Shown one piece after another: positions 51,001 to 57,000 of a stretch of DNA of 64,000 nt. This DNA is from Candidatus Micrarchaeia archaeon (GTDB taxonomy: Archaea; Micrarchaeota; Micrarchaeia; Norongarragalinales; UBA8480): contig JBAMLY010000001.1 in NCBI GenBank assembly GCA_039794045.1, forward strand, positions 1 to 64,000, read 5' to 3'. How positions within the stretch are numbered: the stretch's first letter is position 1; each line of letters begins with the position of its first letter. The position numbers are program-made.

Positions 51001-54000
51001 TTGAAACAAATTTAAAGGCGCAAGCCACCAGTTTTCCACTGCGTGCCACAACTGGTTTGGTTGCCGCGCTTCCAACAACTTATTAATAACTTTTATTTAA
51101 CTGATTTGGAGAATAGTGGAATACAGGGGTGTTTCTCGTGGCTTTGAATAAGGAAGCGTCTGAAGCCTTCGAGGTGCTGGACGCTAAAATGGATGGCTTG
51201 AAAGAGCAACTGCAGAAGTTCGAGGCATTCGAGCAACACGTTGACAGAGCGATTGCCAACAGGTTGTACGACTTACGAGTAGTAGCTTACTTGACGTTAT
51301 TGCTCGTAGTAATAATGTTTTTCTTTCTTGTAGGCTTCGTGTTAAAGCAAGTGGGCTTGTAAACAAAGCGCTGCAAAAAAAAGAGTTTTTACTCGCTTGA
51401 AACGCGGGCCCAGATTTTCTTTCCCATGGCTTCAATGTACTCTACTTCTTTTCCTGCTTCCACTTGTGCTTGAAACTCGGCAGGTATTTCTAGCTCGAAT
51501 GTTTCAAAAGTCTGCGAGTCCATGAGTTGCGCGGTGCTGCCGCTTACACTCACTACTTGCGCGCGCTTTCTCTCCACCACGGGCACTTCAACGTCAGCGT
51601 CAGAGGGAGCCATGAGGGTGTGCTTGCTGCCGTCCACGATGCTTATTGCGACGACGTTTATCTTGCCTGCGCCGTGCTTGCCTGTCTTGCTGTGGCTTAT
51701 GCTCATCACGCGACAGGGGTGTTCGTCTATTATTACGTAGCGCCCTTCGCGTAAGTCGTTCATCGTTGCAAACATTCTGTCAACAGCCATTCCACTAACG
51801 CCCTCCCAAATTTAACGCAAAAACTCATTTAGTAGGCAAAAAACACATTTAAACCCTTTGCACGACACGATAATTAGCGGCGTTAAAGCCAGCTTGCAAG
51901 CAAGGGAGCCGCATGAAAAAAAACGCGACGCAAAAAGAAAGAGTTTTAAGGAAAGGCGTTGCCGCCGTAGTGTTCAAGGGCACTGGAAGCCGCAAGCGCT
52001 TTCTCTTGCTGCACCGGACTCTTAATTGGAGGGGGTGGGAGTTTCCGAAGGGCGGCATTGAGGGTAGGGAAAGCGCGGCTCGCGCCCTGAAGAGAGAACT
52101 CGCAGAAGAAACAGGGATTCAAGCGCGGGACGTGGAATACGTTAAGCCAACGAGGTTGCGGCTCGAATTCGAAAGCAAGGAAAACGAATCACGCAAGAAA
52201 AAGTTTTACTCCAACAAGGTTTTCTTAGTTAAAGTAAGGCCGCGAGCGAGAGTAAGGCTCGGCCGTTTTCCAGTCAAGGAACACGATTCTTTTAAGTGGG
52301 CACCCAAAAAAACGGCTTTGAAGCTCTTGTCTTTTGAGAGCTTGCAGCGCGTGCTAGAGGAAATAAAATGAGTTCGTTTGTCGACGCGCACTGCCACTTG
52401 ACGCACGAGCTTTTCGCGGCTGACTTGCCGGAAGTGCTTGAAAGAGCGAGAAAAGCCGGAGTGGAAAAAGTTTACTGCGTTTCCGGAATGGCGGGACACG
52501 ACGAGAGAGTGCTCGACCTTGCCGCGCGACATCCTGGCTTCGTATTCCCAGTTTTAGGCGTTAGCCCTCACGACGCGCCAAAGACTAGCGACGAGCAACT
52601 GAAGGCCGAGCTGGCGCGCGTTGAAGAAAACAAGGAACAAATCGCTGCAGTTGGCGAGATCGGCTTCGAATTTCACTACTTCAAGGGAGAAGCTGAGCGT
52701 GAAGCGCAACGCAAAATTTTTCGCGCGCAACTCGAGCTGGCTGAGCAGCTGGGCAAGGCCGTCGTGGTTCACTCGAGGAAAGCAACCAAGGAAACCCTTG
52801 ACGAGCTGGCTGGATTCAACGGCAAGGTGATGCTGCACTGCTGCAACGACGCCTTGCTCGCAAGAGAGGGAGCGCAGCGCGGCTACTTGGTTTCAGTGTC
52901 AACGCTTAAAAGCCGCGAAAGACAGAAGATTATCGCTGAAACTCCGCTGGAAAGCCTTTGCTGCGAGACTGACTCACCTTTTCTCTCGCCGGAGAAGGGA
53001 AAGAGAAACGAGCCCGCGAACGTGGTTGCTGCTTACGAGGCGGTCGCCGTAGTCAAAGGAATTAGTTTAAGCGAGTGCGCCGAAAAAATTTACTTGAACT
53101 TGAAGCGTTTTTTCCGGTGATTGGCTTGGTTTTGCGTGGCTTGAAGGAAATGCTTGGCAAGAAAGCCGTTGACAAGAACATGGCAGTGTTCGTGGACGGC
53201 CCAAACATTCTCCGCAAAGAACTCGGCACAGACTTGGACAAAATAAAAAAGAAGCTCTCCAAATTCGGTAAAATCAAGGTAGCAAAAGTTTTCTTGGACC
53301 AGTTCGCTTCAGACAAGCTCATCGAAGCAGTCACCAACCAAGGATTCGAGGCAGTAATTGTTCCCAGTGACGTTGACGTAGCGCTTGCTGTAGACGCAAC
53401 AGAATACGTTTTCAACCCGCACATAGACATAATCGTGGTGGTGTCGCGCGACAGCGACTTCAAGCCTCTCATAACTAAAGCGAAGGCGCACGGAAAAGAA
53501 ACTGTTGTGGCAGGGTGCGAACCCGACTTCAGCACTGCCCTTCGCAACAGCGCAGACCACACCGTCGACATAAGAGAGTGAGAGCTTGCCAGCCAGGAAA
53601 GACTTCGACGCAAGAATTGCGCTCGCCCGCAAGGCAGTGCTTGAAGAAAAAGAATTCGGTGGCGCGAAAGCGCTTGACACTCGCCAGCAAAAGCAGAAGC
53701 CGTTGAAGAAGCTTGACTTGGGAGACCGTCAGGCAATGAAGGAAATCATTAGGGCAGCGCGCCTTCAAGCAATAGAACGCCTCAAAAAACAATCTGGCCA
53801 CCGACTCACTCGGTGAAAAGGAATAGGCAGTGGAAGCAAGTATTTTTAAGTCCTATTCGGTATTCTTTCTTGTTTTGCGGTGAAAAATTTGAACTTTCCT
53901 TACGGCAACCCAGTAAAAACAGGCATAGATGCTGCCAGCGTGGACTTCCTCGCGCTACTCCGCGAACTTCAAGCCAAGATGTTTAACGGCTACTTGTGCA

Positions 54001-57000
54001 TTACCGTGAAGGGAGTGGGAGGACTAGAGGAAGGCGTAATGGTATTCGACAACGGCAAAATCGTTGCAAGCGTTTACGAGTACTTCAAGTACAACAAAAC
54101 CATTCTCGGAGACCAAGCATTCTTCAGAGTGCTTAACGCGAGCGCAGCCAAGCACGGCGTCATAGATTTGTACCAGTTAAGCAACGAGCAAGTGCAGTTG
54201 ATTCTCGCCTTCAACGAGCAAGCAATTTCTATTCCCACCGAAAAAGACTTCAAGTCAGTGAAGCTGGACCGATTCAATCCAGCTTTCGAAGAGCAAGTTA
54301 GAGAGCAAGCCAAAGCCGAAACCGAGGCAGAACTCTTGAAGAAATACAAGCTCGGCGAAGTAAGGGAAGAAAAGAAAGAGTCAAGCGAAGAAATTCCTTT
54401 GGGGGAACTCGAATCCCTCGTTGAAAAAAGATGACTTAAATGACTTCAATAGTAGTGTCTTCAGGAAAAGGCGGCGTCGGAAAAACTAGTCTCGCAGTCA
54501 ACTTAGGAATAGTGCTCGCGCAGGCAGGCAAGAAAACCGTCGTCGTTGACGCAGACATAGCAATGGCGAGCGTAGGCATAATGCTTGGAATAGAGCGCGC
54601 CCCAATCTCGTTGCACAACGTGTTAATGGGCGAAGTCGAAGTCAAGGACGCGGTTTACGAGGGACCAAAAGGGTTGAAGTACGTGCCTTCAAGTTTGTCT
54701 TTGGAGCGCCTCAAGAAAGTAGAGTACGAGAAGCTGAGGACAGCAATAGCAGAACTCGAAACAGAAAACGATTTCGTCATAATCGACAGCCCTCCTGGAC
54801 TATCGCAAGACGCTCTCGCCGCAATTCGCTCGGCAAAAGAAATGATTATGGTCGTAACTCCGGAACCCGCTTCGCTTGCCGACGCCCTCAAAATAAAGAG
54901 CGTAGCGGAAAGAAACAACGTGAAAATAATTGGGCTCGTAATGAATTTCGTTACTCACGACAAGAGCGAGATTAAAAGGCAAGATCTTGAAACGCTTCTC
55001 GGCTTGAGGGTAATCGCGGAAATACCTGAGGACTTGGAAGCACGCAGGAGCGCCGCGCTGCAGCAACCAGTAGTACTGCGAGCCCCGGAATCGGATTTCG
55101 CGCACGGCGTGCTAGACGTGGCAGGTGCCCTTCACGGCGTGGAACTCAAAGTGGAAGCCAAGCCAAAAAAGAAAAGCGTTTTCTCTGGCATTGCCGCCGC
55201 CTTGGCTTCGTTATTCAAGAAAAAAAAAGAGTAGTGCTTGAAAATTTTGTTTTAAATCCTTTTTTTGTGAGGTGCGAAAGATGACTGAAAAAAGACCGTT
55301 CGACGTCTTGAACAACGCGCTTGAGAAAAGCGTGCTAATAAAACTCAAGGGAGACGTGGAAATACAAGGAACGCTGGCAAGCTTTGACGTGCACATGAAC
55401 CTCGTCTTAGAAAACGCGCAGGAAATGAAAGGCGGAGAACTCAAGCGCAAGCTTGGCACCGTCTTGTTGCGCGGCGACACAGTCGTCTTCGTTTCGCCGG
55501 CTTGAGCGCAATCCATTTTAAGCATTCGCGGCAGAATAGATTAGCAATAGCTTCACGTGGGCCTGTAGATCAACGGTTCGCTCTCGAGAGCGCGTTAAAG
55601 ATCGCATGCATGGCATGCATGAGGTTGTGGGTTCGAATCCCGCCAGGTCCACTCCCTTTTTCTACTTTGCCGTCAAAACAATTATTTATGGAGTGCAGGT
55701 TCTGCTCCGTCGTCCGAGGAGCCGAGAAGGCATTCAAGCTAGGCGAAAGCACGCACTGCATAGCCGTCCTCGACATTCACCCGAAAGCGGTTGGGCACTC
55801 GCTCGTCATCACGAAAAAACACTACAAGAAAATCACTGAAATGCCTGGCGAGGAACTGCACGACGCCATCGACTTAGCGTGCCGCCTCGAGGAAGCAATT
55901 CTTTCAGCGTTACACTGCGGCGGCATCGAGCTGCGCCAAAACTATTACCCGTTCATTCCAGAAAACGAGTATCGCTTAGACCACGTGCACTTCCACTTAG
56001 TGCCACGCGAGAAAAACGACGCGCTGTGGCGCAATCCATCCACGCGCTTGAAGCCAACCGAACACGAGCTAGAGGAAACCGCAGAAAAAATAAGGCGCGC
56101 CCTCAAACAAAAACAATTCAAGCTCAATCAAACGCCAAGCGATACCGCGAGCCAGACAAAACTAATTTAATAACCGCACCACAAAAAAGTATTGTTGGGC
56201 CCGTAGTCGAATGGTTAAGACGTCCGCTTGACATGCGGGAGACTCGGAGTTCGATTCGAGCAAGCAAAAGCCTTGCAACTGCTCGCCTGCTCGCGAACAT
56301 CTCCGCGGGCCCACTGCACTTTTTTGCTCGTCACTACGCTTCGCTTCATTCCTCGCAAAAACCTGCACTAAAAAACGTCAAACCAAGCGCAGCCTTATTA
56401 TATTTTAGTTGAGTGCCTTGAAACATGGCTGAAACAGTCAAGCTTGTGTTGTTGCGCCACGGTGAAAGCGAGTGGAACAAGCAAAACAAGTTCACTGGCT
56501 GGACTGACGTGGGCTTGAGCGCACGAGGCAAGAAAGAGGCAGTTAAGGCAGGCAAAAAGCTTTCGCGGGCGGGATTCTCGTTTGACGTTGTGTTCGAGTC
56601 TTTCTTGAAGCGCACGCATCAAACCACTGACTTGGTTTTAAAGGAAATGCGCATTAACCCAAGACGAGAAAAAACCTGGCGTTTGAACGAGAGGCACTAC
56701 GGCGCGCTTCAAGGACTCAACAAGGCAGAGACTGCCGTTAAGTACGGCGAAGCGCAAGTGAAGTTGTGGCGGCGCAGTTATTCGGTGCGGCCGCCTGCGT
56801 TGCAGGCAAGCGACCCCCGCAATCCAGCCAAAGACCCCTTGTACGCAGGAGTGCCGAAAAAGTTTTTGCCTTTGACTGAATCGCTGGCGGACACCGTAAA
56901 ACGAGTGCTGCCTTTCTGGCGCGAGAAAGTTGTTCCGTTGCTGAAGAAGAAGAAAAAAATCTTGATTTCCGCGAGCGGGAACAGCATTCGCGCCATAGTC

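Follow-up and report, generated by a model that had tools for sequence, protein, structure and literature searches.

In the bacterial MinCDE system, MinD is the ATPase, MinE its activator and MinC its cargo. As in the archaeal locus described here, the MinD protein combines a deviant Walker A box with a membrane helix at its C-terminus, and its gene shares an operon with that of a small dedicated protein. Oscillation, ATPase stimulation and the link to FtsZ belong to the bacterial system, whereas the archaeal locus is described from genes and predictions. According to the MinD4 preprint, ParA/MinD ATPases as a rule work with a partner that speeds up hydrolysis, and a 2026 preprint still describes Archaea as lacking both MinC and MinE. 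In haloarchaea, the MinDs serve to position the machinery of motility and chemotaxis; MinD4 of Haloferax volcanii is described in the MinD4 preprint as requiring its C-terminal membrane-targeting sequence. For H. volcanii MinD2 a conserved small operon neighbour, HVO_0596, was proposed as partner (PMC11588486), much as we propose here for a DUF2226 protein, except that HVO_0596 lies downstream of MinD2 and DUF2226 upstream of its MinD. An earlier note on our locus had suggested that DUF2226 would be a first candidate regulator for archaeal MinD proteins, but with HVO_0596 a candidate partner had already been proposed for one of them. In the same report the HVO_0596-MinD2 pair reached an AF3 ipTM of 0.83, yet deletion of HVO_0596 gave no phenotype, which is a cautionary precedent for partner predictions from operon neighbours.

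A small partner that detaches a membrane-binding NTPase is also reported from the Dip system (DipA GTPase, DipB DUF2073, DipC Zn-ribbon), which acts in divisome positioning in FtsZ-using archaea (PMC13228585). These families are unrelated to DUF2226 and MinD, and the consulted sections of that report name Nanohalarchaeota among the DPANN archaea and make no mention of Micrarchaeota. PatA-type regulators such as PixE and PixG use the PATAN domain as an ATPase-binding, membrane-going output domain for protein interaction and localisation; in Synechocystis PATAN was reported to bind PilB1, and the domain alone to be enough for membrane localisation and motor-ATPase binding (yeast two-hybrid; 10.1101/2021.06.11.447907). 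In contrast to these regulators, the DUF2226 protein has no receiver domain, and its partner ATPase would be of the MinD type, not the PilB type.

The DUF2226-MinD locus

The window analysed here is a stretch of 64,000 nt (positions 1 to 64,000 of contig JBAMLY010000001.1) from a Candidatus Micrarchaeia archaeon, a reduced, uncultured archaeon whose genome comprises 655 kb and is 92% complete. It contains a block with the order TatD, NYN, DUF2226, MinD, Sm and tRNA, with the following features:

53075..53581, + strand: NYN-domain protein, TIGR00288 family (PF01936 96.1 bits; TIGR00288 199.8 bits, cut-off 178.45)
53586..53816, + strand: doubtful gene in the NYN-DUF2226 interval, a Lys/Arg-rich ORF of 76 aa (from the ORF listing)
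53880..54434, + strand: DUF2226 protein, short form, 184 aa from GTG (PF09987 50.8 bits, cut-off 22)
53907..54224, + strand: globular alpha/beta core of DUF2226, residues ~10-115 (predicted structure, pLDDT >90)
54273..54311, + strand: conserved helical segment F(S/N)PxFEEQ after the core, residues ~132-144 (helix 135-144 in the model)
54333..54353, + strand: tethered basic motif LLKKYKL after a variable linker, residues 152-158, candidate interaction peptide
54440..55234, + strand: archaeal-type MinD ATPase, 264 aa (TIGR01969 minD_arch 268.5 bits, cut-off 201.75)
54467..54487, + strand: deviant Walker A box KGGVGKT, including the N-terminal signature lysine, residues 10-16 (translation SGKGGVGKTS)
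55181..55225, + strand: basic hydrophobic helix at the MinD C-terminus, residues 248-262 (AF2/DSSP)
55272..55505, + strand: Sm/LSm protein, 77 aa, final protein gene of the block (LSM 80.4 bits; NF001963 109.3 bits, cut-off 101)
55559..55651, + strand: tRNA gene, 93 nt, end of the block (Rfam RF00005 53.4 bits)

As the earlier note had stated, DUF2226 lies directly upstream of MinD, followed by Sm, and the first two genes are separated by only 5 nt. The host genome has one copy of DUF2226, a family that our literature search found named in no paper. Residues 22-164 of the protein align with profile positions 17-166 of 252 in PF09987. Since orthologs begin with MNLP and the protein atlas entry starts at residue 4, the TTG at 53889 is probably the true start (181 aa). 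The predicted core shows the element order E10-17, H23-32, E37-44, E49-57, E60-68, E73-76, H78-87, E93-99 and H102-111. In the ortholog alignment F132 and E137 of the F(S/N)PxFEEQ segment are invariant and S133 nearly so, with the motif at positions 123-132 in most orthologs. LLKKYKL is found in 26 of 28 untruncated orthologs, where K154 and K155 are nearly invariant; across the wider DUF2226 family the motif reads SKxDxLKKYGL and is C-terminal in the ~165-aa forms.

The fold had been described as one without clear structural relatives. This holds insofar as no solved structure matches, but sequence profiles point to a remote relationship, and DUF2226's N-terminal domain is probably a distant relative of PATAN (DUF4388, PF14332). 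DUF4388 was the sole recurrent second family among DUF2226 members (15 of 70, best E 0.0023), and two multi-repeat members, P0172 with 35.8 bits and P0195 with 31 bits, exceed its cut-off of 25. For the window protein itself no DUF4388 match was obtained at E <= 10 and Pfam gave DUF2226 alone; PF14332 likewise matched in none of 40 Methanococcal genomes, a set that carries DUF2226.

The TIGR01969 search yielded a single MinD in the host genome, and the ORF also matches the Pfam families ParA, AAA_31 and CbiA. The bacterial MinD model gave 128 bits, below its cut-off of 212.9. Among solved structures A. fulgidus MinD-1 (1HYQ, E 5.3e-61) comes closest; the AF2 model has a pLDDT of 89.7. In the Walker A box, which is deviant by the definition given in the MinD4 preprint, K10, G11, G12 and K15 are nearly invariant and G14 is invariant among orthologs. 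Residues 231-247 are non-helical (DSSP), with pLDDT <50 at 239-246, leaving a disordered stretch before the C-terminal helix. A KKGFFSxL..LFKKK-like tail with a net charge of +2 to +7 ends all 27 full-length orthologs; its hydrophobic moment is not decisive, and the helix is probably a membrane-targeting sequence. Compared with MinCDE, the MinD is of the archaeal type, and DUF2226 matches neither MinE nor MinC and is encoded upstream of minD.

Conservation of the gene pair within and outside the order

PF09987 was found in 61 of 68 genomes of the order, including all 22 of high quality. The order DUF2226-MinD-Sm had been reported as kept in relatives, which our survey bears out and extends within the order: in 28 of 29 other loci MinD follows as the next gene downstream, on the same strand, the 29th (L012) ending inside DUF2226, so that all 28 loci with enough DNA show MinD, and Sm lies behind it in 26 of these 28, the remaining two (L004 and L023) ending too early. 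At the junctions of the 28 loci in which the MinD start could be assigned we counted 9 ATGA stop/start overlaps, 15 gaps of 0-20 nt and 4 gaps of >20 nt, i.e. 24 of 28 overlap or are spaced by at most 20 nt. All genes are tightly packed in compact DPANN genomes, a point against reading the pair as partners.

Synteny extends further upstream: TatD is kept in 19 of the 25 loci that leave room for it, NYN in 24 of 29. Inherited gene order thus explains part of the DUF2226-MinD pattern, and the pair is not alone in being syntenic within the order; because the genes are adjacent, their joint absence from incomplete genomes is trivial. DUF2226 could on this evidence resemble PATAN and serve as an adaptor for a target of its own, such as a type-IV-pilus-class ATPase, its adjacency to MinD being the legacy of an inherited TatD-NYN-DUF2226-MinD-Sm block. 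The host genome encodes at least four T2SSE-class ATPases, and the binding of PilB1 by PATAN reported from Synechocystis favours the same account. Synteny does decay in the order, however, since the HIT gene downstream of the block is kept in only 3 of 20 loci, and the 9 ATGA overlaps among 28 loci also speak for more than inherited neighbourhood. The distribution argues in the same direction. In a sample of 401 genomes of the phylum, DUF2226 occurred in 45, all within the order, and none of the 352 genomes of other orders carried it; a MinD above the TIGR01969 cut-off was present in 46 of 49 genomes of the order versus 2 of 352 others. Where a genome has several MinD paralogs, the DUF2226-adjacent copy scores best. 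DUF2226 tracks, and is confined to genomes with, one specific high-scoring MinD ortholog and does not follow MinD paralogs generally. Altogether we consider an inherited neighbourhood possible, if on balance unlikely. That a genome of 655 kb has kept one DUF2226 and one MinD we counted in favour of a partnership.

The flanking genes could also suggest an RNA-related module, in which DUF2226 and MinD would act with the NYN nuclease and Sm, for instance in positioning or assembly of ribonucleoproteins, and not in Min-like division or motility. NYN precedes DUF2226 and Sm follows MinD at the frequencies given above, and several loci have the stop codon of NYN right up against the start of DUF2226. 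Against this, DUF2226 matches no RNA-binding family, MinD has a membrane-type C-terminal helix, NYN is missing upstream in L011, L013, L015 and L018 despite available room, and DUF2226 distances correlate weakly with those of NYN (partial r 0.07) and Sm (partial r 0.14). We regard an RNA module as improbable.

Outside the order the description of DUF2226 as a fixed upstream partner, valid within it, does not hold. Among Methanococci, 34 of 40 genomes carry DUF2226 in long forms of 380-430 aa, and none of the 34 loci has a MinD within 1.5 kb, which also favours an inherited neighbourhood; the 10 ORFs scanned across 16 kb around the DUF2226 gene of G420 included no MinD. Linkage to MinD belongs to the short, DPANN-type DUF2226 subfamily and is no trait of the entire family. 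In 14 control genomes only M. jannaschii gave a DUF2226 match, and H. volcanii had none.

The metagenome contig L113, from a distant lineage, has the order DUF2226 (~33% identical to the window's), a 163-aa gene, MinD (285 bits) and LSm. TatD and NYN were not seen there. The retention of DUF2226, MinD and Sm at this distance speaks for a partnership and against an inherited block, and the missing NYN counts against the RNA module, although Sm behind MinD in L113 fits the latter. Unlike in the window's order, a gene intervenes in L113, and its product could be the direct partner there. DUF2226 might then bind MinD only through or with a third, Roadblock-like protein whose gene was lost or moved in the order, leaving a partly redundant or altered system. 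This is hardly likely, as the 92% complete host genome yielded neither a PF03259 (Roadblock) match at E <= 1 nor a relative of the 163-aa protein, and the pair alone is retained in 28 of 28 loci.

Predicted complex and possible mechanism

We predicted a complex of two MinD, two ATP, two Mg and DUF2226. The three runs gave ipSAE values of 0.57, 0.52 and 0.55 (median 0.55), with at least 76% of contacts in agreement and partner pLDDT of at least 78, and the best of three controls scored 0.00. The result was rated 'weak support', with the mark reached. In the calibration, which is only rough here as our own alignments were used and small molecules included, 116 of 157 solved complexes attained the mark, as did 2 of 215 mismatched pairs; scores at the mark but not above 0.60 comprised 18 of the 157 solved complexes and both passing mismatches. 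The position in this weak band favours inherited neighbourhood, while the three controls at 0.00 argue against it, and reaching the mark with two proteins speaks, if weakly, against the need for a third. Correlated divergence across 19 genomes was highest for DUF2226-MinD among six gene pairs (r = 0.65; with NYN and Sm controlled for, partial r = 0.54; p = 0.001 by permutation), a signal that is confounded, since the slow evolution of NYN and Sm (mean distances of 0.35 and 0.26 versus 0.96 and 0.76) makes them poor phylogeny controls. A search of longer proteins for a natural fusion of DUF2226 with MinD came up empty, evidence against a partnership that the tool rates as weak.

DUF2226 is a credible candidate partner protein of archaeal MinD. 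We consider its role as dedicated partner of the MinD encoded just downstream, acting as outlined below, the best explanation, with a probability of about 0.5. Functional coupling of the two proteins is likely, whereas their direct binding, weakly supported by the predicted complex, is evenly balanced. The earlier note had read DUF2226 as the missing partner in the role of MinE or MinC; the pair is real, tight and near-universal in the order, but the data favour neither role.

Under the partner reading, DUF2226 and MinD would be made from one transcript, often with translational coupling. DUF2226 would consist of two parts, a PATAN-type interaction and localisation domain and a flexible tail with LLKKYKL. 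ATP-bound MinD would dimerise and attach to the membrane through its C-terminal helix, and DUF2226 would dock onto the dimer. The tethered basic peptide might then stimulate ATP hydrolysis and membrane release, in the manner of MinE or a ParB peptide; by analogy, MinE and ParB-type activators also carry a basic peptide that is short, conserved and flexibly tethered. Alternatively, the globular domain might link MinD to cargo as MinC does, likely candidates in the host genome being the FtsZ/SepF division machinery or a type-IV-pilus-class ATPase. The conserved tethered basic motif, together with the deviant Walker A box and tethered C-terminal helix of MinD, gives an anatomy that fits a partner, and the membrane localisation and motor-ATPase binding reported for PATAN offer a precedent for the domain; an activator role through the basic motif is nevertheless tentative and rather doubtful. 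If the partner reading is true, DUF2226 would be the partner protein so far lacking for archaeal MinD.

Among the flanking genes, the true NYN start may lie later, as the annotated start overlaps TatD. The 76-aa ORF gave no Pfam family, a meaningless best NCBIfam match (E 0.26) and tblastn matches in 0 of 29 other loci. The tRNA gene, at which ARAGORN found none, probably contains an intron within its 93 nt.

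Gene order around DUF2226 and MinD

DUF2226 and MinD lie in the window within a string of ORFs that all run in the same direction.

Features of the DUF2226-MinD region (coordinates, strand, what it is, basis)
51913-52371, plus strand, NUDIX ORF (ORF listing)
52368-53120, plus strand, TatD ORF (ORF listing)
53075-53581, plus strand, NYN ORF (ORF listing)
53586-53816, plus strand, Lys/Arg-rich ORF of 76 aa between NYN and DUF2226 (ORF listing)
53880-54434, plus strand, DUF2226, 184 aa (Pfam PF09987)
54440-55234, plus strand, MinD, 264 aa (NCBIfam TIGR01969)
55272-55505, plus strand, Sm, 77 aa (LSM / NF001963)
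55502-56170, plus strand, HIT-domain ORF, 222 aa, HIT domain from residue 75 only (ORF listing)
55559-55651, plus strand, tRNA gene, 93 nt (Rfam, 53.4 bits)

A gap of 5 nt separates DUF2226 from MinD, and each of the two, DUF2226 and MinD of the TIGR01969 type, is present in a single copy in the genome of 655 kb (92% complete). The Sm gene belongs to the archaeal Sm family, as it scores 109.3 bits with NF001963 (cut-off 101) and 80.4 bits with LSM. The tRNA gene, with which the block ends, was missed by ARAGORN and probably carries an intron, because it is 93 nt long. Since the HIT ORF contains this gene in its 5' part, and its domain starts at residue 75, we regard the 5' end of this ORF as over-called. 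The 76-aa ORF has no family match and no counterpart among 29 related loci and may be spurious or lineage-specific. In some relatives (loci L008, L026 and L031) 450-750 nt between NYN and DUF2226 are unexplained.

A six-frame search of 68 genomes from the order Norongarragalinales found PF09987 in 61, among them every one of the 22 with a completeness of 90% or more. MinD follows directly 3' of DUF2226 on the same strand in 28 of 29 other loci, the 29th of which stops inside DUF2226, and Sm follows MinD in 26 of 28, the remaining two being cut. This confirms the arrangement described in the earlier note, DUF2226 directly before MinD and then Sm, in every locus that could be read. Where the start of MinD could be assigned (28 loci), it overlaps the stop of DUF2226 as ATGA in 9 cases, lies 0-20 nt from it in 15 and farther away in 4, one of these wide gaps being an artefact of an in-frame stop. 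NYN is found 5' of DUF2226 in 24 of 29 loci and abuts it in several. As control genes we used TatD, which is present upstream in 19 of the 25 loci long enough to show it, and HIT, kept downstream in only 3 of 20. As TatD is conserved too, the conserved block is TatD-NYN-DUF2226-MinD-Sm, and synteny inside the order does not by itself single out the DUF2226-MinD pair.

A conserved promoter before DUF2226 was considered and rejected, as a TATA-like hexamer at -50 to -20 is present in 9 of 29 loci only and NYN reaches up to DUF2226 in several. Gene decay in genus g15 was likewise considered as an argument against partnership and rejected. Two genomes of this genus (G012 and G015) have DUF2226 intact across the aligned region, and in a third (G014) the contig ends 122 nt past MinD. 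Two further loci, L128 (G016:C29) and L023 (G025:C11), hold an otherwise well conserved DUF2226 with a single in-frame stop each (TAG and TAA), at conserved positions (KK*FTG and TY*YY, the asterisk marking the stop) and next to an intact MinD; these stops could be recent mutations or assembly errors.

The DUF2226 protein and its relatives

The window protein scores 50.8 bits with PF09987 (cut-off 22), and all 70 aligned relatives match this family as well. The match places residues 22-164 on profile positions 17-166 of 252, hence not on the full model: the window protein is a short form that lacks the C-terminal third. Its true start is probably the TTG at 53889, because orthologs begin with MNLP and the atlas copy begins at residue 4. 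Pfam at E ≤ 10 lists DUF2226 only, with no match to MinE (PF03776) or MinC, and neither of these is among the families listed for 26 DUF2226 relatives.

An AF2 model from 26 sequences (pLDDT 83.4, pTM 0.74) has a compact alpha/beta core at residues 10-115, followed by two short helices (135-144, 149-155) and a tail that is disordered. No convincing solved relative came out of Foldseek against the PDB, VIA-align in wide mode or a PDB sequence-profile search, which does not prove a new fold. No solved structure of PATAN (DUF4388, PF14332; named PatA_N in Pfam 38.1) appeared in these fold searches. DUF4388 is the only second family that recurs in DUF2226 proteins, with matches in 7 of 26 and in 15 of 70 at a best E of 0.0023, and two multi-repeat members exceed its gathering cut-off of 25 bits, P0172 from Theionarchaea with 35.8 bits and P0195 with 31 bits. 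The two families overlap in P0172 (DUF4388 at 14-71, DUF2226 at 17-111), while in P0195 their best stretches fall in separate regions of the protein. The window protein itself has no DUF4388 match at E ≤ 10, and PF14332 was found in none of 40 genomes of Methanococci. Judging from these profile matches, the N-terminal domain of DUF2226 is rather likely to be a remote PATAN homolog, so the view of DUF2226 as an orphan fold without relatives is probably wrong.

After a variable linker the family carries a basic motif with the consensus SKxDxLKKYGL (LLKKYKL in the window, residues 152-158). Within the order, 26 of the 28 orthologs that are not truncated have it, and in forms of about 165 aa it is C-terminal; it has the look of a linear interaction motif on a tether. 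The Micrarchaeota forms have an additional acidic tail (residues 159-184, 54354-54434), which is absent from the forms of about 165 aa in other lineages and ends in an E(D/E)LLxxL-like motif (EDLLxxL) in 13 of 28 orthologs.

Short and long forms across lineages

DUF2226 is a small family: a search of 1.84 billion representatives gave 293 clusters at E ≤ 0.001. Within the phylum we searched an even sample of 401 genomes with a profile of 50 DUF2226 sequences. The 45 genomes matched are all in the order, against 0 of 352 genomes of other orders. The TIGR01969 cut-off was exceeded in 48 genomes (46 of 49 from the order and 2 others), other orders having lower-scoring MinD/ParA paralogs only; MinD-like matches at E ≤ 1e-20 occur in 198 of the 401 genomes, a tally that counts one genome flagged as unpublished (G241). 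Where a genome has up to four MinD-like genes, the top-scoring copy is the one adjoining DUF2226. This co-distribution may reflect a single gain, because all carriers belong to one clade, and joint absence from incomplete genomes is trivial, the two genes being adjacent.

The word-index profile search for DUF2226 reached Micrarchaeota only. A Methanothermococcus genome (G420) was reached with a published 16S probe for Methanococcales. DUF2226 is present in 34 of 40 genomes of Methanococci, as proteins of 380-430 aa covering profile positions 1-252, and MinD, Sm and NYN are all missing from the nearest 1.5 kb in each of these 34 loci. In G420 the 16 kb surrounding the gene encode FeoB, a glycosyltransferase, a D-aminoacyl-tRNA deacylase, an AIRC-like protein, a 179-aa unknown protein, a radical-SAM protein and others; MinD was not found there. 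The G420 long form has 420 aa and two N-terminal repeats of the core. The 179-aa ORF (8310-8849 of locus L111), which has no Pfam family, begins 3 nt past the stop codon of this long form and may be another conserved partner in the Methanococcal lineage. A search of 151 genomes of Aenigmatarchaeota gave no DUF2226, an empty answer that shows little.

A distant metagenome contig (L113) encodes a short form of 164 aa, about 33% identical to the window protein, in the order 166-aa unknown, DUF2226, 163-aa unknown, MinD (TIGR01969, 285 bits) and LSm.

ORFs flanking DUF2226 in L113 (coordinates, what it is)
3444-3944, unannotated ORF of 166 aa, no Pfam or NCBIfam match
4488-4979, unannotated ORF of 163 aa, no Pfam or NCBIfam match

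From these comparisons it follows that linkage to MinD, and even to Sm, belongs to the short subfamily of DPANN type and is old. L113 differs from the order in that one extra gene separates DUF2226 and MinD; this 163-aa ORF overlaps the ends of both its neighbors. No relative of its product was found in the window genome, nor, at 92% completeness, a third component of Roadblock type (PF03259, no match at E ≤ 1), and the 5-nt interval has no room for a third gene. The window holds the simplest version of the arrangement, in which MinD follows DUF2226 with nothing in between. The description of DUF2226 as a fixed upstream partner of MinD therefore holds within the order but neither in Methanococci (0 of 34 loci with MinD) nor strictly in L113 with its intervening gene: the linkage is lineage-specific.

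Predicted interaction with MinD and possible cargo

The window MinD scores 268.5 bits with TIGR01969 (cut-off 201.75) versus 128.2 bits with the bacterial MinD model (cut-off 212.9). Among solved chains it is closest to MinD-1 of A. fulgidus (1HYQ, E 5.3e-61). The deviant Walker A box KGGVGKT (residues 10-16, pattern KGGxxGK[TS] with the signature lysine) is conserved in a 27-sequence alignment. In the AF2 model (pLDDT 89.7) a disordered linker (231-247) leads to a C-terminal helix that stands apart (248-262). To judge from its counterparts in bacterial MinD and in MinD4 of H. volcanii, this helix probably serves to target MinD to the membrane. Each of the 27 full-length orthologs ends in a basic hydrophobic tail; its hydrophobic moment ranks first within the protein in 12 of 28 proteins only, which is not decisive.

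The complex was predicted from one DUF2226 and two MinD chains, each protein with its own alignment, together with two ATP and two Mg. The ipSAE values were 0.57, 0.52 and 0.55 (median 0.55, verdict 'weak support'), while all three controls gave 0.00; at least 76% of contacts agreed between runs, and partner pLDDT was at least 78. Of 157 solved complexes 116 reach the mark, as do 2 of 215 mismatches, yet scores ≤0.60 comprise only 18 of those 157 and both passing mismatches. This calibration is only rough here, as the alignments were self-supplied and ligands rode along. Distance matrices from 19 genomes gave the highest divergence correlation of all pairs for DUF2226-MinD (r = 0.65, partial r = 0.54, p = 0.001), a ranking for which NYN and Sm are poor phylogenetic controls. 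A Rosetta-stone search among the longer forms found no fused DUF2226-MinD protein, which is weak evidence.

Given weak support for the complex and a strong operon prior, we put the probability that DUF2226 binds MinD directly at about 0.5, a modest rise. The earlier note had proposed DUF2226 as the missing partner of archaeal MinD, in the role of MinE or MinC. Part of this stands: tight linkage and a weak predicted complex (0.55 versus 0.00) make short-form DUF2226 a good candidate for the partner of a single group of archaeal MinD orthologs, on which it may act as activator or as adaptor; the linkage is lineage-specific. The host organisms are uncultured, and the case for a partner is built on synteny and a weak predicted interaction.

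Archaea have MinD ATPases without MinC and MinE, whose absence was restated in 2026 (PMC13228585), and both that preprint and the MinD2 paper (PMC11588486) raise the question of what regulates these ATPases. The former describes the Dip system, an oscillator of a GTPase, DUF2073 and a Zn-ribbon protein; these proteins are unrelated to DUF2226 and MinD. The latter proposes HVO_0596, the operon neighbor of Haloferax volcanii MinD2, as a partner (AF3 ipTM 0.83), and its deletion has no phenotype. This lack of phenotype despite a value of 0.83 is a direct caution for DUF2226-MinD. Within the literature searched, which leaves aside subscription journals, DUF2226 is named in no paper; PF09987 is named in one, on alignment methods. 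DUF2226-MinD is a concrete pair to express and assay, and a partnership would give DUF2226 its first function and PATAN-like domains a new partner class. According to a study on PATAN (10.1101/2021.06.11.447907), the domain on its own is enough for membrane localization and, by yeast two-hybrid, for binding of PilB1, and PATAN genes often adjoin MglA/MglB genes.

A farther-reaching reading, which we consider improbable, would make DUF2226 the missing activator of MinE/ParB type: its PATAN-type localization domain and tethered basic peptide, together with membrane-binding MinD, would make up a minimal self-organizing system of two proteins, by which archaea with small genomes position the FtsZ/SepF divisome or pilus machinery. 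If true, it would be an evolutionary bridge from the PATAN/Roadblock polarity modules of small GTPases to MinD-type ATPases.

Division and pilus machinery are both possible cargo of MinD, because the window genome encodes FtsZ, SepF and several T2SSE-class ATPases. Its four FtsZ-family genes exceed the TIGR00065 cut-off with 379-405 bits, an unusually high number for a 655-kb genome.

Division genes of the window genome (coordinates, strand for SepF, what it is)
C9:1239-2207, FtsZ (TIGR00065)
C16:3285-4265, FtsZ (TIGR00065)
C10:25390-26367, FtsZ (TIGR00065), in tandem with the next
C10:26835-27791, FtsZ (TIGR00065)
37589-37807, minus strand, SepF homolog (PF04472, 47.6 bits)

The genome has a single SepF gene, which lies in the window upstream of the MinD block, at a distance of about 16 kb.
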